In this document: piece after piece, positions 30,340 through 62,335 of the stretch | Numbering within the stretch: the stretch's first letter is position 1 | Layout of the letters: each line of letters begins with the position of its first letter | From: Promethearchaeota archaeon | GTDB lineage: Archaea > Asgardarchaeota > Lokiarchaeia > Sigyniarchaeales > SOKP01 | DNA: 64,000 bases | NCBI GenBank assembly: GCA_019058295.1 | Contig: JAHPZI010000028.1 | Span: 96,001 to 160,000, forward strand | Direction of reading: 5' to 3' | Translations under genes and position numbers: made by a program | The notes under the pieces: model-generated | The model's database searches: none | What the model was told of the DNA's origin: nothing | Seen by the model: the letters and a program-made list of their open reading frames with translations, nothing else

Positions 30340-30517
30340 GATTTTAAAATTCTATTTGGATCTATAAATTATACATTCAATTTTTAAATTCAATTAGATA
30401 TAATTATTGTGTTAAGAAAATAAATATTTATTATAAAACCATTGAAAGTTTTTAAGATTTAATATATTAAATCTTAATAAATAGTTTAAAATATATACAA
30501 TAGAAGTGATTTATAAA

Positions 30518-31309
30518 ATGGTAAAAAAAGAATATATTTGCGACGCTGGTAAAAAAAGTAAAATAGTTATTGAAGATTTATCGTTTCAGATTAATGAAGG
30601 TGCAACTCTAATATTAGGATTTGCAGGTATTGGATTAATAGGGCCTATCGTGGCAAATCAGCTCATAGAACAAATTCCGGATATTAAAGAAATCGGTTTT
30701 CTAGTAAGTGATTTCCTCCCACCAATAAGTGTATTTTATCAAGGAGTTTTGAAGCATCCATTTAGGCTACTCTATACTCCTCAGCATAACATAATTGTTG
30801 GTGTTTGTGAAGTTCCCTTTCAAACTCCTTCTGCTTACAACGACCTTTCAAAAACTATATGTAATTGGGCACTTTCTGACGATGTAAAGGCAAAAGAAAT
30901 AGTTATTTTTCAAGGAATACCCCAAAGGGGAATAATAGACGATTATCCTGTTTATTATGCTGCTGAAGCCGAAATGATAGACGATCTTGAAAAGCATGGT
31001 ATTCAAAAAGTGGAAAAAGGAATTATTGTGGGTCCTGAAGCCACCGTCCTAAATGAAGCTTTGACAAATAGATTAACCTCTTACGCGCTATTCACGCCCG
31101 TATTAGAAATTCCTACACCTGAGGGTGCCGCAGCAATTATTGAGGTTTTAAATGATATTTACAATTTAAATATAGAGACCAGTAAATTAATTGAGGAGGG
31201 TAAAGAGATTAAAGCTAAAATGCTTGAATTGGCACAAAAAGCACAACAATATCAGAAACAACAACAATTACCTGGAACAGGAAAAGAATATACGCAATAT
31301 TTCCAATAA
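30518..31309 (+). CDS. PAC2 family proteasome assembly chaperone
   Basis: GFAGIGLIGPIV, P.PEGAAA.I, LIEE..EI; start placed at the ATG after GAAGTGA. Confidence 0.88.
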   Translation: MVKKEYICDAGKKSKIVIEDLSFQINEGATLILGFAGIGLIGPIVANQLIEQIPDIKEIGFLVSDFLPPISVFYQGVLKHPFRLLYTPQHNIIVGVCEVPFQTPSAYNDLSKTICNWALSDDVKAKEIVIFQGIPQRGIIDDYPVYYAAEAEMIDDLEKHGIQKVEKGIIVGPEATVLNEALTNRLTSYALFTPVLEIPTPEGAAAIIEVLNDIYNLNIETSKLIEEGKEIKAKMLELAQKAQQYQKQQQLPGTGKEYTQYFQ

Positions 31310-39950: not shown

Positions 39951-40221
39951 AAGTACAACAAGAAATTGTTGAATATTTAAATATTTGGGGGAAAAAGATG
40001 GGAAATCTTAATAAGATTACAATCTATTTCTTTTTTTTTCAAAAAACTAATTTTTTCAATTTTAAAATTCTAGGTAAATTAGATATTGATGATGAGATTT
40101 TTTGTAAGAACACTAACCTTGAATTCTAAATTTTTTTCATATAAAAGCAAAATTTTATAAATGCAAAAATGGCAATTTTTATTATCGAATTTAAATCAAG
40201 AAAAAATTTTGAGTAGAAAAA

Positions 40222-42048
40222 ATGAAATCGAATATGAAAGCAAAACTTATGTTGATATTTTTGTGCTCACTCATTTCACTCTCTTTTGTCTTTGGTAGTA
40301 ATATCGTTATTTATCCAGCTAAACTCAGCGAAAATCCAGTAAATACCAGCGAGCAGAATGTAGAAAAACCCCACTCTTCCACGAATGGGGCGTTCAAGAT
40401 ATATTACCCTGCCAACGGTACGGCATTAACAGACATTGACGATTTTGATTATCAGGGTAATACTATAATCAGTGATGGTGAAGGAGGTGCTATTATAGCA
40501 TACTGGAGTGTGGCTAATAATGATATTTATGCTCAAAAGATCACATCAAATGGAGATTTACCTTGGGGTTTGAACGGTGTAGTCATATGCAACGCATCTG
40601 GCATACAAGATTGGGTTACTCTCTGTACTGATGATGCGGGTGGCGCGATTATAGCATGGACAGATAATCGAGTGGGTACTGACATTTATGCGCAACATAT
40701 TAATTCAACAGGACATACACAATGGGGTGAATCTTGGTGGAGTCCAAACGATCGGAACGGCACGGTTATCTGCAATGCCACTGATGTTCAATTGAACCCT
40801 CAGATTTGCAAAGACGGGGCTAAGGGCGCAATTATAGCATGGGAAGATGAGAGAAATCCAACCAAGGAGATTTATGCGCAACGTGTGGATTCTAACGGAA
40901 TTACGCACTGGGGGGAATCTTGGTGGAGTCCAAACGATCGGAACGGGACGGTTATCTGCAACGCTACTATTTTCCGAGAGGAAATTCGGATTTGCAGCGA
41001 TGAGAGTAAAGGTGCGATTTTGACATGGTATGATAGAAGAACTGGTACTGATTGTATTTATGCGCAACGTGTGGATTCTGAAGGAAATACACAATGGGGG
41101 GAATCTTGGTGGGGTGGTCCTAACGATCGCAACGGTACGGTTATCTGCAACCATACTAGTTGGACAAATTTTCCTCAGATTTGTAAAGACGGGGCTAATG
41201 GCGCGATTATAGCATGGACAGATAATCGAGTGGGTACTGACATTTATGCGCAACGTGTGGATTCTGACGGAAAAACGCACTGGGGTGAATCTTGGTGGAG
41301 TGGTCCAAACGATCGGAACGGCACGGTTATCTGCGACGACACTGATAGCCAGGATTATGTATATCTTTGTGAAGACGGGGCAGGGGGTGCCCTTTTAACC
41401 TGGGAGGATGGTAGAGGAACTGATGATGTTTATGCCCAGCGAGTAGATTCTGATGGCAATACGCACTGGGGCGATGGAAAAGTATGGGTAGGGAAGCCAG
41501 ATCGTAACGGCACGCTTGTTTGCAACGCACTTGGCAACCAAGATATGCCTCAAATTTGTGCTGATGGGACAGGGGGGGCGATACTGGTGTGGAGTGATTA
41601 TAGGCACGGCTTTGATGATCATATTTATGTTCAACGAGTCAGTTCTGATGGCACGACGCACTGGGGTGATGGAAAAACGTGGGGAGGGAACCCAGATCGT
41701 AATGGCACCGCTATATTTAATGTGGCAGGAGTAGATGGATATACGGAGGATGAGGATCCCGAATTTTCTAATATCTGTAGTGATGATAACGGAGGCGCTA
41801 TCATCTTCTGGGGGGATGAGAGAAACGCTGGTTCTAATTTTGATCTATTTGCGCAACGAGTAAGAGGAGCAATTCTCCCTACAGGTGGCGGAGTACTTCC
41901 CGCTGGAGATGACGATGATGACGACGATGAGGATACGGGAATGGTGGTTGTAGTCGTAGTTATTATCATTATCGCGTGTGTTGGTGGAGTGGTTGTTGTC
42001 GTTATTGTATTAATTAAGAAGGGTGTAATAGGCACATCAAGAGGATAA
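40222..42048 (+). CDS. Cell-surface protein with 8 approx. 62-aa repeats (probable beta-propeller), poly-Asp linker and C-terminal TM
   Basis: Signal peptide; DG.GGAIIAW.D.R...DIYAQRV repeats; locally higher GC. Confidence 0.85.
   Translation: MKSNMKAKLMLIFLCSLISLSFVFGSNIVIYPAKLSENPVNTSEQNVEKPHSSTNGAFKIYYPANGTALTDIDDFDYQGNTIISDGEGGAIIAYWSVANNDIYAQKITSNGDLPWGLNGVVICNASGIQDWVTLCTDDAGGAIIAWTDNRVGTDIYAQHINSTGHTQWGESWWSPNDRNGTVICNATDVQLNPQICKDGAKGAIIAWEDERNPTKEIYAQRVDSNGITHWGESWWSPNDRNGTVICNATIFREEIRICSDESKGAILTWYDRRTGTDCIYAQRVDSEGNTQWGESWWGGPNDRNGTVICNHTSWTNFPQICKDGANGAIIAWTDNRVGTDIYAQRVDSDGKTHWGESWWSGPNDRNGTVICDDTDSQDYVYLCEDGAGGALLTWEDGRGTDDVYAQRVDSDGNTHWGDGKVWVGKPDRNGTLVCNALGNQDMPQICADGTGGAILVWSDYRHGFDDHIYVQRVSSDGTTHWGDGKTWGGNPDRNGTAIFNVAGVDGYTEDEDPEFSNICSDDNGGAIIFWGDERNAGSNFDLFAQRVRGAILPTGGGVLPAGDDDDDDDEDTGMVVVVVVIIIIACVGGVVVVVIVLIKKGVIGTSRG
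40641..41254 (+). repeat. Intragenic tandem repeats (period approx. 186 nt)
   Basis: 56-nt identical blocks at 40641-40696 and 41199-41254; gaatcttggtgg recurs four times. Confidence 0.9.
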
Positions 42049-51623: not shown

Positions 51624-51908
51624 ATGATGACAAAAGAAAAAGGCATTGACAAAGAAAGTCTATTAAGTTATATAAAAAAGGCAATTAAGTTATTATGTGA
51701 AAACAACTTATCTGAAGTGGTAATTTTATCATCTTACAAAATAAATTCTGTTCTAAAGGAGAATTTCGGCGTTAACATAAAAGTCGATAAAATTGGGAGA
51801 ATATTAAGCGGTATAGCTAAGCGAAATCAATTAAAAAGATTAAGTACCTCAATACCTAAATACAAATTACGAATATCTAATTTCTCCAGTTTGAAATTTA
51901 AGATTTGA
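51624..51908 (+). CDS. Small basic hypothetical protein (possible winged helix)
   Basis: 94 aa, basic, helix-turn-helix-like spacing. Confidence 0.5.
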   Translation: MMTKEKGIDKESLLSYIKKAIKLLCENNLSEVVILSSYKINSVLKENFGVNIKVDKIGRILSGIAKRNQLKRLSTSIPKYKLRISNFSSLKFKI

Positions 51909-53229
51909 TTATTTTTTTTAATTTTTCAGTTGCTAAATTCATTTCTTTATAAGTTTCTTTAAGATTATTCAGTTCTGTGTTCAATTTTTCAATTTCATTT
52001 GTAATATTCTGCTCTAAAGATGATATATCCGTTGATATGATATTCTCTATTTTATTAGAGAAATTTTCTGTCTCGTTTGAGACTTCTGTGATGTTTTCTG
52101 AGGTCTTGTTCACTGATTCTTCCAACTTAAAGGTTAAACTGCTAGAATTGCTAATTTTATCTGAAAGGTCTTTTAAATTATTTTCTATGTGATTCATAAT
52201 ATTCTTAAAGTTTGTTTCTACGAGGTTATTTAAATCGTTCAAAATCTCGTCTTTAGATGAAGATAATTGGGTTATTAAATCTCTTTGGGCGTCAATCCGA
52301 ATATCTAAATACATAGATATATTTTCCTTAAAGTTTTCAGCAATTTCATCTAAATTTCTTTTAAACCAGTTTGCTACATTGGAAATTCCGTCAGAGATTT
52401 TACCTTTCATATTACTCGTTGAATTTTTCAGAAGCTCAGATCCGGTTAATGCCCCATCTCTAATATCTTTAGTCCAGGTACCTAATTGATGTTCAAATTG
52501 ATCCATAAATAAATCTGCAAATTTTGAAGTTCCTTCTTGAAATCCTGAAATTATTGGTCCTAGGGCGAGTATAGGTTCTTTTGACATAGGGATCTCTTGG
52601 AGATCATCAAGAGGAGATTCCGCCAATTCATTAATTTCTCTGATTAGGATTGGTGCTTTTTTCTGAGTATCTTCAACTAATTTTTGAACCCATTTAAAAT
52701 AGTCAAGAGTGCTTGGAAATTCCAACTCGTATTCAACTTTATGATATTCATTATTTTTATCGTCGGAAGAATCATTTAATCTATAAATTTCAAAACCTAA
52801 ATTCCCTTCTTTACCCATTAAAGTGTGATCGAAAACAACATAAAAACCATAGGGTTTTTGTTCATTCTGGAAAAAGGAATGGTGGGTTTTGATTGCTGAA
52901 TCAGAAAAAAATAGCCCCCATCCTGGGTGGGATGAGTACCAACCTACTATATTCATTTTTTTGCTAGCATATCTATTTTCAATTTCAGAAAAAGTATTAT
53001 AATCATCTGAATTAAAACCTATTGATATTTTTTTTCCATGAGTGATAGGTATGGCATTAATAAGATCAATATCTTTATCGTTTAATTTACCAATGCAAAT
53101 TCCCATCACCTCAACACTTTCGTCTAATGCTTCATTTCCAAATCTTAAAACATGCGTTATCATGTTTCTAAACGCCTCTTTTTTAATTTTTATCTTTCCT
53201 TCTCCTGAATTTTCTTTTTGTGTCGGCAT
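51898..53229 (-). CDS. JAB/MPN domain protein with degenerate JAMM motif plus C-terminal helical/coiled-coil region
   Basis: EVMG retained; GWYSSHPGWGLFFSDSA lacks the first His and the Asp. Confidence 0.88.
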   Translation of the reverse strand: MPTQKENSGEGKIKIKKEAFRNMITHVLRFGNEALDESVEVMGICIGKLNDKDIDLINAIPITHGKKISIGFNSDDYNTFSEIENRYASKKMNIVGWYSSHPGWGLFFSDSAIKTHHSFFQNEQKPYGFYVVFDHTLMGKEGNLGFEIYRLNDSSDDKNNEYHKVEYELEFPSTLDYFKWVQKLVEDTQKKAPILIREINELAESPLDDLQEIPMSKEPILALGPIISGFQEGTSKFADLFMDQFEHQLGTWTKDIRDGALTGSELLKNSTSNMKGKISDGISNVANWFKRNLDEIAENFKENISMYLDIRIDAQRDLITQLSSSKDEILNDLNNLVETNFKNIMNHIENNLKDLSDKISNSSSLTFKLEESVNKTSENITEVSNETENFSNKIENIISTDISSLEQNITNEIEKLNTELNNLKETYKEMNLATEKLKKIIKS

Positions 53230-53234
53230 TTTAG

Positions 53235-54689
53235 TTATTCACCCCCTCCTTCTAGATTTTTAATTTTATTTAATAAATCCTCCTTCTGAGACTCCATTTC
53301 TTTTAATTTATCATTTAAAGATTTAAAAGTGGCTTCAATTTCAGATGATGATGAATCATAATTCGATAAAAATTCTTGTGTTTCATTACGGTAATCAGTA
53401 AATTTATTTAATATATTAGCTATTTTTTCTTTTAAATTGCTTTCAATTTTTCCACAAAATCCCCTTAATTTTTCTGAAGTTAACCTTTCTAAAGATTTAG
53501 TCTTTTCAGATATTTTTTCTAAAGATAATCTTTGTTGAGCTAAACTTTCTGAAGAGAGTTTATTTTTTTGATTAATTTCTGTCAATTTATTTGAATTTTC
53601 AGCGAAATTTTCACTAATTTTATTTAATAAACCATTGACGTTTTGTTCAAATAATTCATTTATCTGTGTAGGGAGTTCTTCTTTTAATTTTTCAATAAAA
53701 TTTTTTGCAATTTCATTGTTTTTATCAAAATTTTCAAACTGATCACCTATATAGGTCTCAAGATCATCTAGCTTATATTTTAATGAGAATTTAAAATTAT
53801 TCTGAAGCTTATCAATTCCTTTCCTTAAATCATCTTTTAAATCAACTAAATCATCTCTAATTTGAATATTATTTTCCATTATATTTTTTATAATCTCTTG
53901 GCTCCAAGAGTTTAAAAAATTTATTAGTGGTTCAATAGATAATTGTAAAAATTGCGAAATTCCATTATGTAAAGCTGAGAGAATATCTTCTAAATTTAAT
54001 TGGGGCTTAGCCGCTAATAATTCCCTTTTGCTTGGAAAGAAAATCTCGCCGAAAAGATCAGGGGTTTCGTTAATCTCCAAAATTGGGGGTTCTTTTGAGT
54101 GAATACAATTAATTAATTCCATTATTTTAAAGTAATAATCTATACTGTCAGGAGGTTCTACAATAGTTTCTACCTCATGATAATCTGATTTTTGACCCTT
54201 GGACGGATCATCAAGTCTAAAAGTTCTAAAACCTAAATCTCCCTGATTTTCTAAAAAAGTATGATCAAAAACTATGCCTATAGCGCTAGGATTTGGAGTT
54301 TGCCAACCCAGCTGATTTATTTTGTCTACTCCCGAGAAAAAAATGTTTAACCCAGGATGTGAATGGAACCAACCAACACTGAAAAGCCCCTTATCAGCGT
54401 ATTTTTCATCTATTAGAGCAAAAGACACATAATCTTCAGGAGCAAAAGCAACCTCAATCGAACCGCCATGCGAAATTGGCACAGCATCTTCAACAATTAT
54501 ATTTTTAATGCCCCTTTTATTTGGTTCACCTTCAAGGCGTCCAATAAGTATTCCCATTACTTCCTTGTATTGTCTCTGATCTCTTACTCTATTACCAAAT
54601 CGCAATATATGGACGAGCATTTTGTAATAGGCAAGTGGTTTGATAAGGACGGACCTATCGCTCTCTTGATGACGTTTACTCAAATTCAT
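53235..54689 (-). CDS. JAB/MPN+ metalloprotease plus C-terminal helical/coiled-coil region
   Basis: EVMG; GWFHSHPGLNIFFSGVD is an intact HxH-x7-S-x2-D. Confidence 0.92.
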   Translation of the reverse strand: MNLSKRHQESDRSVLIKPLAYYKMLVHILRFGNRVRDQRQYKEVMGILIGRLEGEPNKRGIKNIIVEDAVPISHGGSIEVAFAPEDYVSFALIDEKYADKGLFSVGWFHSHPGLNIFFSGVDKINQLGWQTPNPSAIGIVFDHTFLENQGDLGFRTFRLDDPSKGQKSDYHEVETIVEPPDSIDYYFKIMELINCIHSKEPPILEINETPDLFGEIFFPSKRELLAAKPQLNLEDILSALHNGISQFLQLSIEPLINFLNSWSQEIIKNIMENNIQIRDDLVDLKDDLRKGIDKLQNNFKFSLKYKLDDLETYIGDQFENFDKNNEIAKNFIEKLKEELPTQINELFEQNVNGLLNKISENFAENSNKLTEINQKNKLSSESLAQQRLSLEKISEKTKSLERLTSEKLRGFCGKIESNLKEKIANILNKFTDYRNETQEFLSNYDSSSSEIEATFKSLNDKLKEMESQKEDLLNKIKNLEGGGE

Positions 54690-54795
54690 TCACTTTTTTT
54701 TAAAATTTAGATTTGTTAATTCTTATTATTAATATAATTTAACGATTTTAAAATACTATTTATAGAATAAAAAAGAGTAAAATTTTTCCTAAATA

Positions 54796-55524
54796 TTAAT
54801 GCTTATGAGGTATTTCGCGACCGCAGTCTGGACAATATTTAGGAATCAAATTTTTACCGCAATAAGGGCAAAATTCTGATGATTTTTCACTAACTTCCTC
54901 TGTCGAAACTACAGCAGATGATTTTTCACTAACTTTTTCTGTCGAAACTTCAGCAGATGCAGGAGTTTCTTGAGGAGTACCTCCTGGAATTGAAGGTAAT
55001 TTTCTTTTTGTTTTTATAGTAGATGAAGCAGATGCCTGTTCTTCTTTTGCTCTTTCAGCAGCCACTCTTTCTTTAAATGCTTTTCGCTGTTCTTCTAACT
55101 TCTCCTCTTGAGTTTGTTCACCTTCTTGTTTCACCCAACCAGGACCCTTAAAAGCACCTTTGATCTCACTTTGAGGTACTTTTTCTAATTCAACTTTTTT
55201 CGTTTCAGCAACAGGTGCAACAGCTCTTTTTTCTTGTTTTTTACTAATTGCTTGTTTTATTAACGCTTGAGTTGTTTTCATAATTTGGTGTGGGTTTATA
55301 TTTGGTAGCGTAATAGTTCGTAGGACCCAGCCAACAATATAATTCTGATTTGGAAAGTCTCCATCTCCCATTTCAGCATCTTTATATACATAAGAATCGA
55401 TTACGTCCTTACCTTTAAGAAGGCGAGACGCCCAGCGTTTATTTATAAGTCCCAGTTGTAATCGATAAGAAGTACCTGAAATTCCCAACTGGGATGATAA
55501 GGGGATGAAACCTTGTTCTGTAAT
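54796..55524 (-). CDS. Hypothetical protein with low-complexity linker and C-terminal double zinc ribbon (start extended to ATT at 55524)
   Basis: CPYCG...CPDCG; AAGGTGA SD at 55531-55537; 39-nt duplication at 54878-54955. Confidence 0.75.
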   Translation of the reverse strand: MTEQGFIPLSSQLGISGTSYRLQLGLINKRWASRLLKGKDVIDSYVYKDAEMGDGDFPNQNYIVGWVLRTITLPNINPHQIMKTTQALIKQAISKKQEKRAVAPVAETKKVELEKVPQSEIKGAFKGPGWVKQEGEQTQEEKLEEQRKAFKERVAAERAKEEQASASSTIKTKRKLPSIPGGTPQETPASAEVSTEKVSEKSSAVVSTEEVSEKSSEFCPYCGKNLIPKYCPDCGREIPHKH

Positions 55525-55686
55525 GATATTTCACCTTATTATTATTGTAATATTTTGATTATGATTATTATAATAATTATAATTTTACTAATTTATAATT
55601 TTATATGCAAGAAAAAGCATAAATAGAAAAAGTTTTATTATGAATCAACAAGCTTAAAAATATAATAAAAAAACTCATAATAAAAA

Positions 55687-56643
55687 ATGACTGTAATTAT
55701 CCCAAAAAAAGCTTATTTAACTATCGTAGCAGCGTCTGTTAGATTTGCAAATCCTAAGATTCCCTTTGACGATTGGTTAGAAATATATGGTATTTTTACG
55801 GGAAAATCTTCCAAGAATGGTAAGGATTTAATAATTACTGAAGCATATAATATAACACACCAAGTAAAAAGGGAAGAGGATATAATAGACAAGGTATATT
55901 GGTCTGATGAAGATTATATCTCATTTAGTATGATTGATGACGATGCTTTTTCAAGAGGCGAATATACAGTAGGATGGTACCATTCTCATCCTGGTCACAG
56001 AGTAATGATGACTAGTTTAGATATTCGCACTACAGCAACTTATCAACAATATAATCCTCTTGCAGTTTCTCTTGTATTTAATCCACAACGATTAACCAGA
56101 CAAATTGAAGTTCCAGCAAGAAAAGGAGATCCCGAACTAAGATTGGATTGCGATCCCGGTTTTAAAATTTTTAGATTGGGCAATCCTGAAGATGTTGATT
56201 CAAATTACCATGAAGTATATGATTATAAGATTGATGGATTTGAAAGTGAAGAGCAATTAGTAGAATATGCTAAAAAGTTCGCTATAGAAATAACAGATTT
56301 ATTTCCTAAAGATAATGTTGTTGAATCATATAATAATTACGTCAATGATAAATTAAGACAATTAAACTCATTATTGATGGGAACTGAAGATTATTTGAAA
56401 TCATTAGCTCGAAAAGATGAAAAAAGTAGGATCCCTGAAGTGTTAGAAAATCAAAAAAAAGAGATTAATAAATTTGTAGCAGAAACATATGTTAAAATAG
56501 AAAATATGAAAGAATTCCTTGATTATCTCGAATATAAAGAAAAAGATGTTATCATTCCAAAAGTTAAGGACGTCTTATCCAATTGGGATGAAAATATAGC
56601 TAATTTAGATAAGAAATTAGATGAATTATCAAAAAAATTCTAA
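55687..56643 (+). CDS. JAB/MPN domain protein plus C-terminal helical bundle
   Basis: LEIYG; GWYHSHPGHRVMMTSLD (Ser replaced by Thr). Confidence 0.88.
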   Translation: MTVIIPKKAYLTIVAASVRFANPKIPFDDWLEIYGIFTGKSSKNGKDLIITEAYNITHQVKREEDIIDKVYWSDEDYISFSMIDDDAFSRGEYTVGWYHSHPGHRVMMTSLDIRTTATYQQYNPLAVSLVFNPQRLTRQIEVPARKGDPELRLDCDPGFKIFRLGNPEDVDSNYHEVYDYKIDGFESEEQLVEYAKKFAIEITDLFPKDNVVESYNNYVNDKLRQLNSLLMGTEDYLKSLARKDEKSRIPEVLENQKKEINKFVAETYVKIENMKEFLDYLEYKEKDVIIPKVKDVLSNWDENIANLDKKLDELSKKF

Positions 56644-56767
56644 ATTACTTAAAATCAGTTTTTTATTCTCAAAATCAGTAGTTTCTAACTTTAAAAAATC
56701 ATAATAATATTTTTAATAATTGGTTTGTACCAAAAATCTTTTAATTCCTTTTATTTTACTACTTACA

Positions 56768-58978
56768 ATGAAAAAGATTAATTTTCCCTTCACAGCGATA
56801 TTAGGACAAGATAAAATGAAGATGGGTTTAATTTTAAACGTTATAGACCCACAAATAGGAGGAGTTCTTTTAACAGGACATCAAGGGACGGGTAAGTCTA
56901 CGGCTGTAAGGTCTTTAGTAGAAGTTATGCCAAAAATAGAAGTTATCGAAGATTGCCAATTTTCTTGTGATCCAGCATCAAATATTGATGATCTTTGTGC
57001 TTCTTGCCGCCAGAAAAAAAAGGAAGATAAATTAAAAACTTATGTACGCAATATGAGAATCGTTAATCTTCCTCTTGGTGTAACAGAAGATATGGTATGT
57101 GGGAGTTTATCAATTGATAAAGTTCTTACAGAAGGAACTTCTGAACTTCATTCAGGCTTATTAGCTAAAGCTAATCGTGGTATTTTATATGTTGATGAAA
57201 TAAATCTTTTACAAGACCATATAGTTGACGTTCTGTTGGATGCCGCAGCGTCAGGGATCAATATAATAGAGCGCGAGGGAATATCAGTTTCTCATCCATC
57301 TCGATTTGTTTTAGTAGGTTCGATGAACCCTGAAGAAGGGGAATTAAGACCACAGATCGCAGATAGGTTAGGTTTAGAAGTTAAAATAAAGGCACCGAGA
57401 GATCCTACATTGCGGGCCGAAATTACGAAAAGAGTAATAGAATTTGACGATAATCCAAAGGATTTTATTGAGAAATATGAAGAAGAGCAAGAAAAATTAA
57501 GGCAAAAAATACTTAATGCGAGAAAGATCATTAGTACGGTTGAAATTCCAGCGCGTATTTACGAATTAGTATCGAAAATTGTTAATGATCTTGGAATTTT
57601 TTCACAAAGAGCAGATATTACATTCATTAGATGTGCTAGGGCGAACGCTGCTTTAAATGGTAGACAGAGGATTGAACAAGAGGATCTCAATGTTGCAATG
57701 GATTTAGTATTCGAACATCGAATAGCGTCATTACATTATGAAATGACACCTAATGAAATAAAAGCGAAAATTGCCGAAGTTTATGGAAAAATTGAAGAAG
57801 CTATTGAAGATCCAGAAGTATATAAATCAAATCCCGAGACTGAAGGACCTTTAAAGCACGATGATACTCCTCAAGAAGAATTTAAGCGACAATCTATTGA
57901 TCCTGATAAAGTGGATGTTGGGGAAACAAAAGAACAAAAATACCCTCCTCCTAAATATCCAGATAAGAAAAAGAGAAAAGCAAAACCAGCAGGAGGTTGG
58001 AAAGTTAAAGATATACCGTTTGAAGAAGCGGATGATTTTAATTTATCAGATGATGATTTTGATATAACATCATTTATTTATAGAATGGAAAAGAAAATGA
58101 CTTCTATTTTAGATAATATTCGCAGAGAACGTAGAGTTTCTGATTATGGAGGTCGGGGAATTGGTCGTAGAATTAAAATAGCATCGTCTCAAAAAGGAAG
58201 GTATGTATCATATCGGACTCCTAGAGGTCAGCGACCAAAAAGTATAGCTTTAGATGCGACAATTAGGAACTACTTAAAAAATATTGTGTACAATCAAACG
58301 GAAATTAGCTTTCCAATTCGATTTAATAAATATGATTTAATGGATAAAATCTATGAATATCGAGCACCATTAGCGCTATTTTTTGTTCTTGACAGTTCTG
58401 CGTCTATGTACTATGTTATTAAACAAATGACTGATGTTATTTTATCTTTACAAAAGGAAGGATATAGAAAAAGAGATAAAATTTGCCTTATAATCTTTAG
58501 AGGCAAAGAGGCAGTTGTCTTGCAGAAACCGACTGTCATTTTTAAATATGCTTTAAATAAATTAAAAAAAATAGAGGGAAAATCATATACACCAATGGCA
58601 GCTGCCTTAAGGAAAGTTATGGATTTAATAAAGGCAGAGAAAATGAAAAATAAAAATATTGTTCCTGTAATTTTTATTTGTTCAGACTGTGGTGCTAATA
58701 TTTCTGCGAAATATCCTGAGTTAATTGCTCAAATTGAAAGTGATTATGCTATAATTATTCAGGAATTAAAAGAATTGACCAAAAAGCTTTCAAAACAAAA
58801 AGTTCATATAGTTGTGTTAGAACCAAAAAAATCATACGCAACGCAGGCACTAGGTGTACATCCATATTCTGCTGATAAAATTAAGAAAAATTTCAAAAGG
58901 TATGGAGGAGCTGAGATATATAAATTTGATCGATATAATCCTTCATCGCTAATTTTAGAATTAAAAAAGATTCTTTAA
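56768..58978 (+). CDS. BchI/BchD-type AAA+ ATPase fused to vWA domain
   Basis: FPFTAILGQ, GHQGTGKST, LYVDEINLL, MNPEEGELRPQ, Pro/acidic linker, MIDAS LDSSASM, TP. Confidence 0.9.
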   Translation: MKKINFPFTAILGQDKMKMGLILNVIDPQIGGVLLTGHQGTGKSTAVRSLVEVMPKIEVIEDCQFSCDPASNIDDLCASCRQKKKEDKLKTYVRNMRIVNLPLGVTEDMVCGSLSIDKVLTEGTSELHSGLLAKANRGILYVDEINLLQDHIVDVLLDAAASGINIIEREGISVSHPSRFVLVGSMNPEEGELRPQIADRLGLEVKIKAPRDPTLRAEITKRVIEFDDNPKDFIEKYEEEQEKLRQKILNARKIISTVEIPARIYELVSKIVNDLGIFSQRADITFIRCARANAALNGRQRIEQEDLNVAMDLVFEHRIASLHYEMTPNEIKAKIAEVYGKIEEAIEDPEVYKSNPETEGPLKHDDTPQEEFKRQSIDPDKVDVGETKEQKYPPPKYPDKKKRKAKPAGGWKVKDIPFEEADDFNLSDDDFDITSFIYRMEKKMTSILDNIRRERRVSDYGGRGIGRRIKIASSQKGRYVSYRTPRGQRPKSIALDATIRNYLKNIVYNQTEISFPIRFNKYDLMDKIYEYRAPLALFFVLDSSASMYYVIKQMTDVILSLQKEGYRKRDKICLIIFRGKEAVVLQKPTVIFKYALNKLKKIEGKSYTPMAAALRKVMDLIKAEKMKNKNIVPVIFICSDCGANISAKYPELIAQIESDYAIIIQELKELTKKLSKQKVHIVVLEPKKSYATQALGVHPYSADKIKKNFKRYGGAEIYKFDRYNPSSLILELKKIL

Positions 58979-59044: not shown

Positions 59045-59989
59045 TTATTGTTTTTTTGCAAACTCTAAAGCTTTTTCGGTAGCCTCATTTAATAATTTTA
59101 GATGTCTTTTTCCGAATGATATTAATATTTTTCTATAAAGTCCAGGAATGAATCCTCGTAAAAACTGCATTGCTCTTCCATAGCGTCTCTCAAAAATATA
59201 AAGTTTTTTCTTTTTAATCTTTTTAATAAAACGTTTTACAGCTCGCTCTACGGGAAATCCCCCAGCAAAACCATGAGATAATCCTTGCTTTTTAGTGAAT
59301 TCTTCCCAATAATGACTTTTCCCTATTTTAAGTGCTTCTTGCATATCATCAGCATTAATTCCTTCCAATTTTTCAGGGGATATTCCAAATCCAACTGAAT
59401 CAATTAAATTTGTTCTAATTGGAAAAGGACAAATCACAGACACGTCAATTCCTCTATGACTATATTCACTATAGAGTGATTCACAAAATCCTGCATTAGC
59501 AAATTTTGATGTATTATATGGATTTAAGCCACCAACGCCTAAACTTCCCGCAATTGAAGCAGTCACGATAATATGACCAAATTTTTGTTCTAAAAATTTA
59601 GATATAAACGCTTTTACTACATAATACATGCCAAATAAATTGACATTTATAGTTTTCTCCCATTGGGCTTGAGTTATATCCTCAAATGGCCCTCCAGTAG
59701 CAATACCTGCGTTAGAAAATAAAAAATATATCTCTCCTAATTCTTTAATTGAAATTTTAGCTAAATTTCTTACTTGGGAATTTTTTGTCACATCACAATT
59801 AACTGAGATTACCTTTATAGGAAATTCTTCTAATTCTTTTCTTAGTAATTCTAACTTTTCCATATTGATATCAGAGATTACAAGATTACATCCATATTTT
59901 GCTAAGTTTAAAGCAAATTCTCGTCCAATACCACTGGCAGCTCCTGTTATAACAGCACTTTTTCCTTTAAAAAACTTCTTGCTTTTCAT
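59045..59989 (-). CDS. Short-chain dehydrogenase/reductase
   Basis: TGAASGIG, SNAG, YNTSK. Confidence 0.93.
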   Translation of the reverse strand: MKSKKFFKGKSAVITGAASGIGREFALNLAKYGCNLVISDINMEKLELLRKELEEFPIKVISVNCDVTKNSQVRNLAKISIKELGEIYFLFSNAGIATGGPFEDITQAQWEKTINVNLFGMYYVVKAFISKFLEQKFGHIIVTASIAGSLGVGGLNPYNTSKFANAGFCESLYSEYSHRGIDVSVICPFPIRTNLIDSVGFGISPEKLEGINADDMQEALKIGKSHYWEEFTKKQGLSHGFAGGFPVERAVKRFIKKIKKKKLYIFERRYGRAMQFLRGFIPGLYRKILISFGKRHLKLLNEATEKALEFAKKQ

Positions 59990-61510: not shown

Positions 61511-62335
61511 ATGGAAGTAAATGGAGATAAAGAAAAACTCTTAAGAGATACAATAGAGGATATAAAAAAAACCATCGCTCTTAAAGAAGATCAATTAAGC
61601 ACTATTAATTCTACCTTGGTCCTTAAGGATGCGCAAATAAAGACGTTAGAAGACTCGTTAAAAGTTAAAGAAGAAAAAATTGCCGCTTTAGAAAAGACTG
61701 TAAAATTAAAAGAAGATGAATTAAAATCGACGGCAGGCTCAGCAGTTGATGAAGAAATACTAATAGAAAAAGACAAGAAAATTGAAGAACTTCAAAAAGA
61801 GATTGAAATATTAAACGATGAGTTAAATAAATCAGACGAAGTAATCGAGCAGTTAGAATTAGAAAAAGAAAAATTAGAGGAAAAGGAAAAAAATTCCAAA
61901 TCCTCAGATTCGAAAATTATTGACTTTACAAATATTTCTATTAGCGTATCTGAGATTATTGAAAAAATGCGCGAAATTTTACAAAAAGCAATGCATAACG
62001 TAACAATTGCCGTTCCTAATATAACAGATTTACAAGATTTACATCTTTATGAAGTTAGGTCGTCGGTTAATATGAAAATATCTTGTGAAATTAATCCTGG
62101 AATTGAGGAAAACGCTGATTTATTGGATGAATATGAAAGCCTCGACAATATCTCTCTGAGAAATTTTGAGGGAAGCGATAGATATATTATAATAAGAGAT
62201 GGTGAAGAGTTAATGATTGGAGTTATTGGAAAAAACGATAATAATCATCTAGTCTTTCACACAAGTGATCCTTCTCATATAAAACTCTTTAATTCTCTCG
62301 TAATGGAAGGTTGGCTGAGATCACGTAAGATTTAG
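61511..62335 (+). CDS. Coiled-coil protein with C-terminal TrmB/PLD-like domain
   Basis: N-terminal heptads; A..NV.I..P, IIRDGEE.MIG, W..SRK. Confidence 0.6.
   Translation: MEVNGDKEKLLRDTIEDIKKTIALKEDQLSTINSTLVLKDAQIKTLEDSLKVKEEKIAALEKTVKLKEDELKSTAGSAVDEEILIEKDKKIEELQKEIEILNDELNKSDEVIEQLELEKEKLEEKEKNSKSSDSKIIDFTNISISVSEIIEKMREILQKAMHNVTIAVPNITDLQDLHLYEVRSSVNMKISCEINPGIEENADLLDEYESLDNISLRNFEGSDRYIIIRDGEELMIGVIGKNDNNHLVFHTSDPSHIKLFNSLVMEGWLRSRKI

Follow-up and report, generated by a model that had tools for sequence, protein, structure and literature searches.

The proteasome lid, the COP9 signalosome, eIF3 and BRISC are each characterised by a pair of MPN-domain proteins, one active and the other dead. 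The 26S proteasome combines MPN, vWA and AAA+ parts, and BRISC combines MPN with vWA parts. Outside eukaryotes, JAB enzymes target several beta-grasp carriers. No known group is more closely related to eukaryotes than the Asgard archaea, and here we describe a locus with three MPN proteins, a zinc-ribbon protein and an AAA+-vWA fusion ATPase (the motor) in a member of the Asgard class Lokiarchaeia. The locus lies in a 64,000-nucleotide stretch (hereafter, the window) of a Promethearchaeota archaeon genome (assembly GCA_019058295.1, contig JAHPZI010000028.1, positions 96,001 to 160,000). The most similar solved structure to one of its proteins is that of the Caldiarchaeum Rpn11 homologue (CsRpn11), a characterised archaeal deubiquitinase (PMC6043591).

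Our preferred reading, in which we place about even confidence, is that the locus encodes a Lokiarchaeia-specific (Promethearchaeia) set of eukaryote-type JAMM (JAB1/MPN/Mov34 metalloenzyme) isopeptidases, together with a chelatase-derived motor that probably does a separate job. The source genome is 3.2 Mb in size and 79% complete (G000 in contig labels). Proteins were screened against Pfam and NCBIfam profiles, and against the defence models of PADLOC; structures were modelled with AlphaFold2 (AF2) and compared using Foldseek and VIA-align. Labels such as G013, G016 and G036 denote genomes of relatives compared in this analysis. The sets comprised nine genomes of the same genus (for CobN), nine genomes from eight genera (for neighbourhoods), 41 relatives, and 66 genomes of the family with the third MPN gene. 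The five open reading frames (ORFs) listed in an original prediction, made from the window alone, are all present at the positions and with the domains it gave (Pfam, NCBIfam). Their arrangement is seen in 13 genera and so is not due to chance. Searches of relatives and a tree show the genes to be single-copy and vertically inherited. PADLOC returned generic JAB and coiled-coil matches for the locus proteins and no match to a defence system, and we found no paper on this locus in the literature. The features of the locus are as follows.

51898..53229, reverse strand: MPN- paralogue, 443 residues; JAB domain and a helical tail of ~250 residues
53235..54689, reverse strand: MPN+ paralogue, 484 residues; JAB domain with intact JAMM site and a helical tail of ~290 residues
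54796..55524, reverse strand: zinc-ribbon protein, 242 residues from a probable ATT start; N-domain, disordered linker and C-terminal ribbon
55525..55686, no strand: AT-rich divergent intergenic region, common to both gene arms
55687..56643, forward strand: MPN3, 318 residues; compact JAMM protein with a four-helix C-terminal domain
56768..58978, forward strand: ChlI/ChlD-type AAA+-vWA fusion, 736 residues from a probable ATG start at 56768; Walker A and B motifs, Cys4 insert, Pro-rich linker and a vWA domain with a metal-ion-dependent adhesion site (MIDAS)

The three MPN proteins match the JAB family (PF01398) with E-values of 2e-15, 2e-10 and 9e-13, and all score higher on the eukaryote-type JAB model than on the Prok-JAB model. 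The MPN+ protein has a complete JAMM motif (HSHPGx5S..D), formed by E43, H109, H111, S119 and D122, and its sequence matches in the PDB are CsRpn11, CSN5, Rpn11 and BRCC36. Its family is small, with 63 cluster representatives at E <= 1e-30 among 1.84 billion. The 443-residue protein is a JAB protein (E 2e-15, Pfam) with the motif SSHPG..S..A; two JAMM residues, the first His and the Asp, are gone, and with them an intact zinc site. The two proteins are 29% identical over residues 8-456, tails included, and are thus tandem duplicates of each other. The MPN+ gene ends 5 nt upstream of the MPN- gene in this genome, and the spacing ranges from -8 to +16 nt across 14 genomes. The pair occurs in three families, the genes being translationally coupled every time; in the two besides the window's own family it persists without the other genes of the block.

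The two paralogues are under asymmetric constraint, as the first is always intact and the second has decayed in most lineages. Glu, both His, Ser and Asp are unchanged in all 15 orthologues of the first paralogue (MPN+). The second evolves faster (27-71% identity vs 38-68% for the first). Its JAMM site is complete in five lineages (G022, G013, G016, G039 and G037), lacks Glu alone in G015 and G026, and elsewhere has lost His, Ser or Asp in varying combinations; two genomes of a single genus differ in its state. Because the second paralogue is still intact in five lineages, loss of the JAMM site happened inside Lokiarchaeia. Common descent of this paralogue with the eukaryotic MPN- lineages was tested and was not borne out, as it is a tandem duplicate that shares the tail of the first. 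Judging by these alignments, the MPN- state dates to within Lokiarchaeia and is independent of Rpn8, CSN6 and Abraxas. One-sided, repeated catalytic loss is the pattern expected of an obligate pair that needs one active site, and the MPN pair most likely forms an asymmetric heterodimer.

A further class of paralogues (P0066, P0071, P0076, P0080, P0086, P0087 and P0138) carries a tetratricopeptide repeat (TPR)-like domain of ~250 residues N-terminal to a similar MPN domain. The six JAB hits of this genome include no JAB protein of the size of these TPR-MPN proteins (about 480-690 residues).

The third MPN protein, MPN3, has the JAMM residues E32, H99, H101, T108 and D112 (HSH..T..D). The catalytic residues are invariant in 17 orthologues, most of which have Ser where this genus has Thr. 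In the AF2 model, with a mean predicted local distance difference test (pLDDT) score of 90.9, the MPN domain is packed on four long helices, which make up an extra, conserved domain (residues 188-317). The model adopts the MPN fold, with Z scores of 15-17.5 against Rpn11, CSN5 and CsRpn11. The best structural match (VIA-align) is the Caldiarchaeum Rpn11 homologue in complex with ubiquitin (Z 17.5, root-mean-square deviation 1.9 A over 142 residues, 29% identity). Foldseek ranks CSN5, BRCC36 and Rpn11 about equally, and neither it nor VIA-align decides which eukaryotic family is nearest. From its residues, MPN3 is a compact JAMM enzyme, predicted to be active in every orthologue.

An insertion of 31-32 nt, with an in-frame TAA, lies directly 3' of the HSHPGF codons of MPN3 in six genomes of one genus (for example, L067:650-920, L068:640-910, L069:330-600 and L070:330-600, from G239, G268, G085 and G297). 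It includes a 5-6 bp stem that covaries across species (AAAACG/CGTTTT, AAAGT/ACTTT, AGAGC/GCTCT and AAAGC/GCTTT). This may be a mini-intron of the bulge-helix-bulge type in a protein-coding gene, or the gene may be a shared pseudogene.

Encoded divergently from MPN3 is the zinc-ribbon protein, annotated as an ORF at 54796-55488. It has three parts. A conserved N-domain of ~95 residues is followed by a linker that is disordered but contains conserved short motifs, and then by a C-terminal ribbon of the CPxCG..CPxCG type (CPYC..CPDC here), in place of which one genus has a helical segment. Orthologue alignment moved the gene start 12 codons upstream. Orthologues begin M-T-E-K/Q-G-F, and these conserved first 12 codons (55488-55524, reverse strand) precede the first ATG, GTG or TTG of the gene. 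The start codon is probably the ATT at 55524, 7-8 nt 3' of GGTGA. The AF2 model is confident for the N-domain only, and a wide structural search with this domain gave nothing above noise (best Z 6.3). In profile searches of the PDB, Pfam and NCBIfam the ribbon alone was matched. The conserved N-domain and short linear motifs suggest that this protein could be an adaptor. A docking motif, GW(V/K)K, appeared to be shared by the zinc-ribbon protein and the linker of the motor; this idea was dropped because the CobN-linked paralogue of the motor (see below) also has a Gly-aromatic motif there.

The N-domain (~90 residues) is widespread in other Asgard families (L071-L076), in proteins of 285-390 residues in which a Pro/Glu-rich linker leads to another C-terminal domain, also with Cys residues. 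Pfam gave no match, and no MPN gene is near these homologues.

The motor is encoded by an ORF at 56720-58978 (752 residues), and orthologue alignment shifts its start, so that translation probably begins at ATG 56768. It has the layout of a chelatase motor, with a ChlI-type AAA+ module, a Pro-rich linker and a vWA domain; the Walker motifs are intact and the MIDAS (DSSAS..T..D) is complete. It matches ChlI (6l8d) with an E-value of 7e-97 and the BchD vWA domain with 4e-6. TIGR02442 is its best NCBIfam match, and the score of 583 bits is below the curated cut-off of 779. Orthologues are 62-91% identical within the family, with invariant Walker, sensor and MIDAS residues. The Cys4 insert is also found in the CobN-linked paralogue, and is not special to the clade of this motor.

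We searched for the large chelatase subunit, CobN/BchH (PF02514). None was found in this genome, nor in any of the nine genomes of the genus, two of which are 98-99% complete. CobN was identified in 12 of the 41 relatives and was not found in the other 29, which do carry an orthologue of the motor. In all 12, CobN adjoins a second, shorter BchI/D paralogue (656-685 residues), and never the orthologue of the window motor. In a maximum-likelihood tree, CobN-linked and window-type motors form separate clades with 100/100 support, and G016, G036 and G027 have one copy in each. The clade of the window motor spans three families of the order. Never beside CobN, in a separate clade and with invariant residues, the motor is, on this comparative evidence, a conserved paralogue of the chelatase motor that is independent of CobN, rather than a stranded chelatase subunit. 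The original prediction had noted that the window has no large chelatase subunit, which is correct and extends to the whole genome as searched. It had also argued that the system is not a tetrapyrrole chelatase, and named habitual linkage of the motor to cobN/bchH as the finding that would speak against this; the search for these genes showed no such linkage, and the argument stands.

The motor orthologue of two sister-family genera is immediately preceded by a pair of paralogous ORFs of ~210-226 residues that belong to no known family (L020:362-1802 and L036:11066-12426). Neither was found in this genome.

Whether the motor and the MPN proteins belong together depends on how the larger block is conserved. 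The order in the family is nearly universal: orf94 on the forward strand, then the MPN-, MPN+ and zinc-ribbon genes in reverse, and then MPN3, the motor, an ATP-grasp gene and a coiled-coil protein gene in the forward direction. In the window, the flanking features are as follows.

51624..51908, forward strand: orf94, 94 residues; convergent with the MPN- gene, no known family
59045-59989, reverse strand: short-chain dehydrogenase/reductase (SDR) gene; sits between the motor and ATP-grasp genes in this genome
60098..61342, forward strand: ATP-grasp ligase, 414 residues; immediately 3' of the motor gene in most relatives
61511..62335, forward strand: coiled-coil protein with a C-terminal globular domain, 274 residues; near the motor gene in two families, no family match

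Outside the family of the window, the order of MPN3, motor and ATP-grasp genes is not fixed. The MPN pair and the divergent zinc-ribbon/MPN3 pair are older and better supported units than the block. The latter pair occurs in two families, with sister-family cases in G030, G034, G036 and G038. Where the block splits, the zinc-ribbon gene stays with MPN3 in G013 and with the MPN pair in G016, G161 and G176.

The smallest gene of the block, orf94, is also the most conserved of its small genes. Its product is 65-83% identical and in the same place in all nine genomes from eight genera. The gene always converges on the MPN- gene, and the two overlap at their 3' ends by 11 nt here. Pfam and NCBIfam gave no match; by eye, the residue pattern may be winged-helix-like.

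Several observations weigh against our preferred reading, in which the motor and the isopeptidases have separate jobs and the isopeptidases act in ubiquitin-type pathways. The motor is directly 3' of MPN3 in 50 of the 66 family genomes, and within 5 kb in six more. In four sister-family genomes the two genes are on one contig, 10, 13, 21 and 40 kb apart. For the tails of the MPN proteins the only matches are weak ones, to generic coiled-coil families. Finally, each of two ubiquitin-type operons found elsewhere in the genome (described below) has its own short JAB protease, to which the three MPN genes of the locus are extra.

The adjacency could be explained otherwise if the MPN pair, zinc-ribbon protein, MPN3, motor and perhaps ATP-grasp ligase were one tagging, de-tagging and remodelling system, the Asgard counterpart of BRISC or of the lid plus base of the proteasome. 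In such a machine the MIDAS would recognize a tagged client, the motor remodel it and an MPN enzyme remove the tag. The block as a whole, orf94 through to the coiled-coil gene, occurs in 8-9 of the nine genomes from eight genera, and farther neighbours occur in just 5-7. Where the block is broken, in G016 and G013, the break falls at the putative divergent promoter and leaves two intact halves, and sister-family genomes retain the loose linkage of 10-40 kb. The co-occurrence of such parts in the 26S proteasome and BRISC also favours integration. However, the genes are tightly adjacent in only one family, whose regional synteny is broad, and block adjacency is therefore weaker evidence than it might seem. 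Unrelated neighbours within 20 kb, such as genes for a beta-CASP nuclease, a copper ATPase, NifU, PAC2 and a PHP protein, are present in 5-8 of the nine genomes. In other sister-family genomes MPN3 and the motor are on different contigs, and the long-tailed MPN pair of that family is elsewhere, beside neither. In G001, G011, G024 and others, one to three inserted genes lie between MPN3 and the motor. The MPN3 stop codon is followed by a T-run, and a TATA-like box lies 5' of the motor ATG. We identified no MPN fusion with vWA, AAA or ATP-grasp domains among the 150 best relatives of the MPN+ protein, and the motor belongs to the BchI clade of ATPases rather than to the classical clade of unfoldases. 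Complex prediction of MPN3 with the two halves of the motor, run without controls, scored 0.00, which counts neither for nor against an interaction.

We consider integration of this kind unlikely, although given the adjacency in 50 of 66 genomes and the looser linkage in the sister family, a functional link between MPN3 and the motor is possible from gene order. The fullest version would unite the CobN-independent motor and the ATP-grasp ligase with all three MPN proteins and the zinc-ribbon protein, as adaptor, in a single Asgard-specific machine that couples ATP-driven, MIDAS-mediated remodelling of tagged proteins to tag removal; it is distinctly improbable. If true, it would be an independent prokaryotic solution to the task of the lid and base, or of BRISC, built on a chelatase-type rather than a classical AAA+ ring. 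The original prediction, an uncharacterised proteostasis or remodelling system that is not a chelatase, was thus sound as to the chelatase, but a single five-protein system is not established. The comparison of neighbourhoods that it proposed shows the block across the 13 genera, but adjacency of MPN and motor genes only in the one family with broad synteny.

As the original prediction had observed, there is no ubiquitin, E1 or E2 gene in the window; two such operons are present elsewhere in the genome. The first, on another contig, encodes ubiquitin, E1, E2 and a JAB protein of 266 residues, with a further ubiquitin-fusion gene nearby (L041; G000:C12:2500-12000). The second, of ubiquitin type and ~23 kb past the end of the window, encodes a JAB protein of 163 residues, an E1-like and an E2-like protein (L042; G000:C28:180500-187500). 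As each operon has its own JAB gene, ubiquitin need not be the substrate of the locus. The MPN enzymes could instead cleave an adduct of a ThiS/MoaD-type sulfur carrier, or a peptide or amino-acid tag added by the ATP-grasp ligase. The range of beta-grasp carriers handled by non-eukaryotic JAB enzymes would allow this, an ATP-grasp amide ligase is conserved two genes 3' of MPN3 in the family, and a cysteine synthase gene and two NifU genes are just upstream of the block in this genus. We nevertheless find a non-ubiquitin tag improbable. All three proteins fit the eukaryote-type JAB model better than Prok-JAB, the nearest solved structure to MPN3 is a ubiquitin-bound archaeal deubiquitinase, and the ATP-grasp linkage is limited to one family. 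A sulfur system of the CysO/Mec+ type, considered on account of the cysteine synthase and NifU neighbours, was rejected because the adjacency is genus-specific and the block contains no carrier ending in Gly-Gly (orf94 ends KFKI).

The weakest alternative, that the motor serves an ordinary cobalto- or magnesium-chelatase whose CobN/ChlH is merely missing from a 79% complete assembly, has in its favour the strong likeness to ChlI, the BchD-like vWA domain and the TIGR02442 match, but is very improbable given the score below the family cut-off, the failure to find CobN in any of the nine genomes of the genus, near-complete ones included, or in 29 of the 41 relatives, all with the orthologue, and the pairing of CobN with a different paralogue in a separate, fully supported clade.

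Elsewhere in the window, a PAC2-family gene (proteasome assembly chaperone 2-like; 30506-31309, forward strand) is found 20 kb upstream of the locus, and is near the block in four of the nine genomes. The stretch at 40001-42000 has 42.6% G+C, compared to about 28% in the rest of the window; it overlaps an ORF of 608 residues (40222-42048) with no Pfam match.

Under the preferred reading, of an isopeptidase set with a separately employed motor, the first MPN subunit (MPN+) would catalyse, and the second, dead here, would be a scaffold or regulator. The logic of this pair would be that of Rpn11-Rpn8, CSN5-CSN6 and BRCC36-Abraxas, reached by a separate duplication inside Lokiarchaeia. MPN3 probably works with the divergently encoded zinc-ribbon protein, a candidate adaptor. 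Likely substrates would be conjugates or precursors of ubiquitin or ubiquitin-like proteins from the two E1/E2 operons. The motor, by analogy, would act on some client by means of ATP and its MIDAS site, either pulling on it or loading metal into it.

The locus presents an enzyme/pseudoenzyme arrangement that arose on its own, with living lineages at different stages of decay. The path from two active enzymes to an enzyme-scaffold pair is directly testable in these lineages. In addition, a chelatase-type AAA+/MIDAS motor is strictly conserved in an archaeal order that mostly lacks the chelatase large subunit, which raises the question of what role such motors have other than metal insertion into tetrapyrroles.

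Like Rpn11-Rpn8 and CSN5-CSN6, the MPN pair combines the eukaryote-type JAB fold with C-terminal helices, and an active paralogue with a decayed one (sequence and fold matches with E-values of 1e-7 to 1e-10 and Z scores of 15-17). Unlike them, it derives from its own tandem duplication in Lokiarchaeia, the second copy is still intact in several lineages, and the tails, at 250-290 residues, are much longer. The locus also differs from the proteasome lid, and from a lid-like assembly, in that no PCI-domain scaffold subunit is encoded with the MPN pair; the PCI-like hits of the genome are in unrelated proteins of 792-1480 residues on other contigs. BRISC and BRCA1-A (BRCC36-Abraxas/KIAA0157 and MERIT40) have MPN+ and MPN- proteins with coiled-coil tails, a vWA protein and the zinc-finger adaptor RAP80, all of which have parallels in the locus, and BRCC36 is among the fold and sequence matches of the locus MPN proteins. 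However, the vWA domain of the locus is the C-terminus of a BchI/BchD-type ATPase and matches that of BchD in sequence, and no UEV/BRE-like gene was seen in the locus. The likeness to BRISC is in architecture only, as read from the genes.

CsRpn11 (PDB 6fnn/6fjv; PMC6043591) is, like MPN3, an archaeal protein with an active-type JAMM site from a genome with a ubiquitin/E1/E2 system. It is shorter (~150-230 residues) and is encoded inside a ubiquitin operon, whereas MPN3 has the extra four-helix domain and is outside both operons. The motor shares AAA+, Cys4 insert, linker and full MIDAS with class I chelatase motors (BchI/BchD, ChlI/ChlD and the CobN-associated fused ChlID). It differs in its lack of a CobN/ChlH partner in the genus, its separate clade and its score below the family cut-off. 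In NorQ-NorD (PMC13036017), CbbQ-CbbO and CoxD-CoxE, an ATPase and a MIDAS-vWA partner act on a protein client, not on a tetrapyrrole. The NorQ, CbbQ and CoxD ATPases are of the MoxR family and are encoded beside the client enzyme, whereas the locus motor is of the BchI family and has no evident client. By analogy, action on a protein client, in the manner of NorQ-NorD, would be the most plausible way of working for this CobN-less motor.

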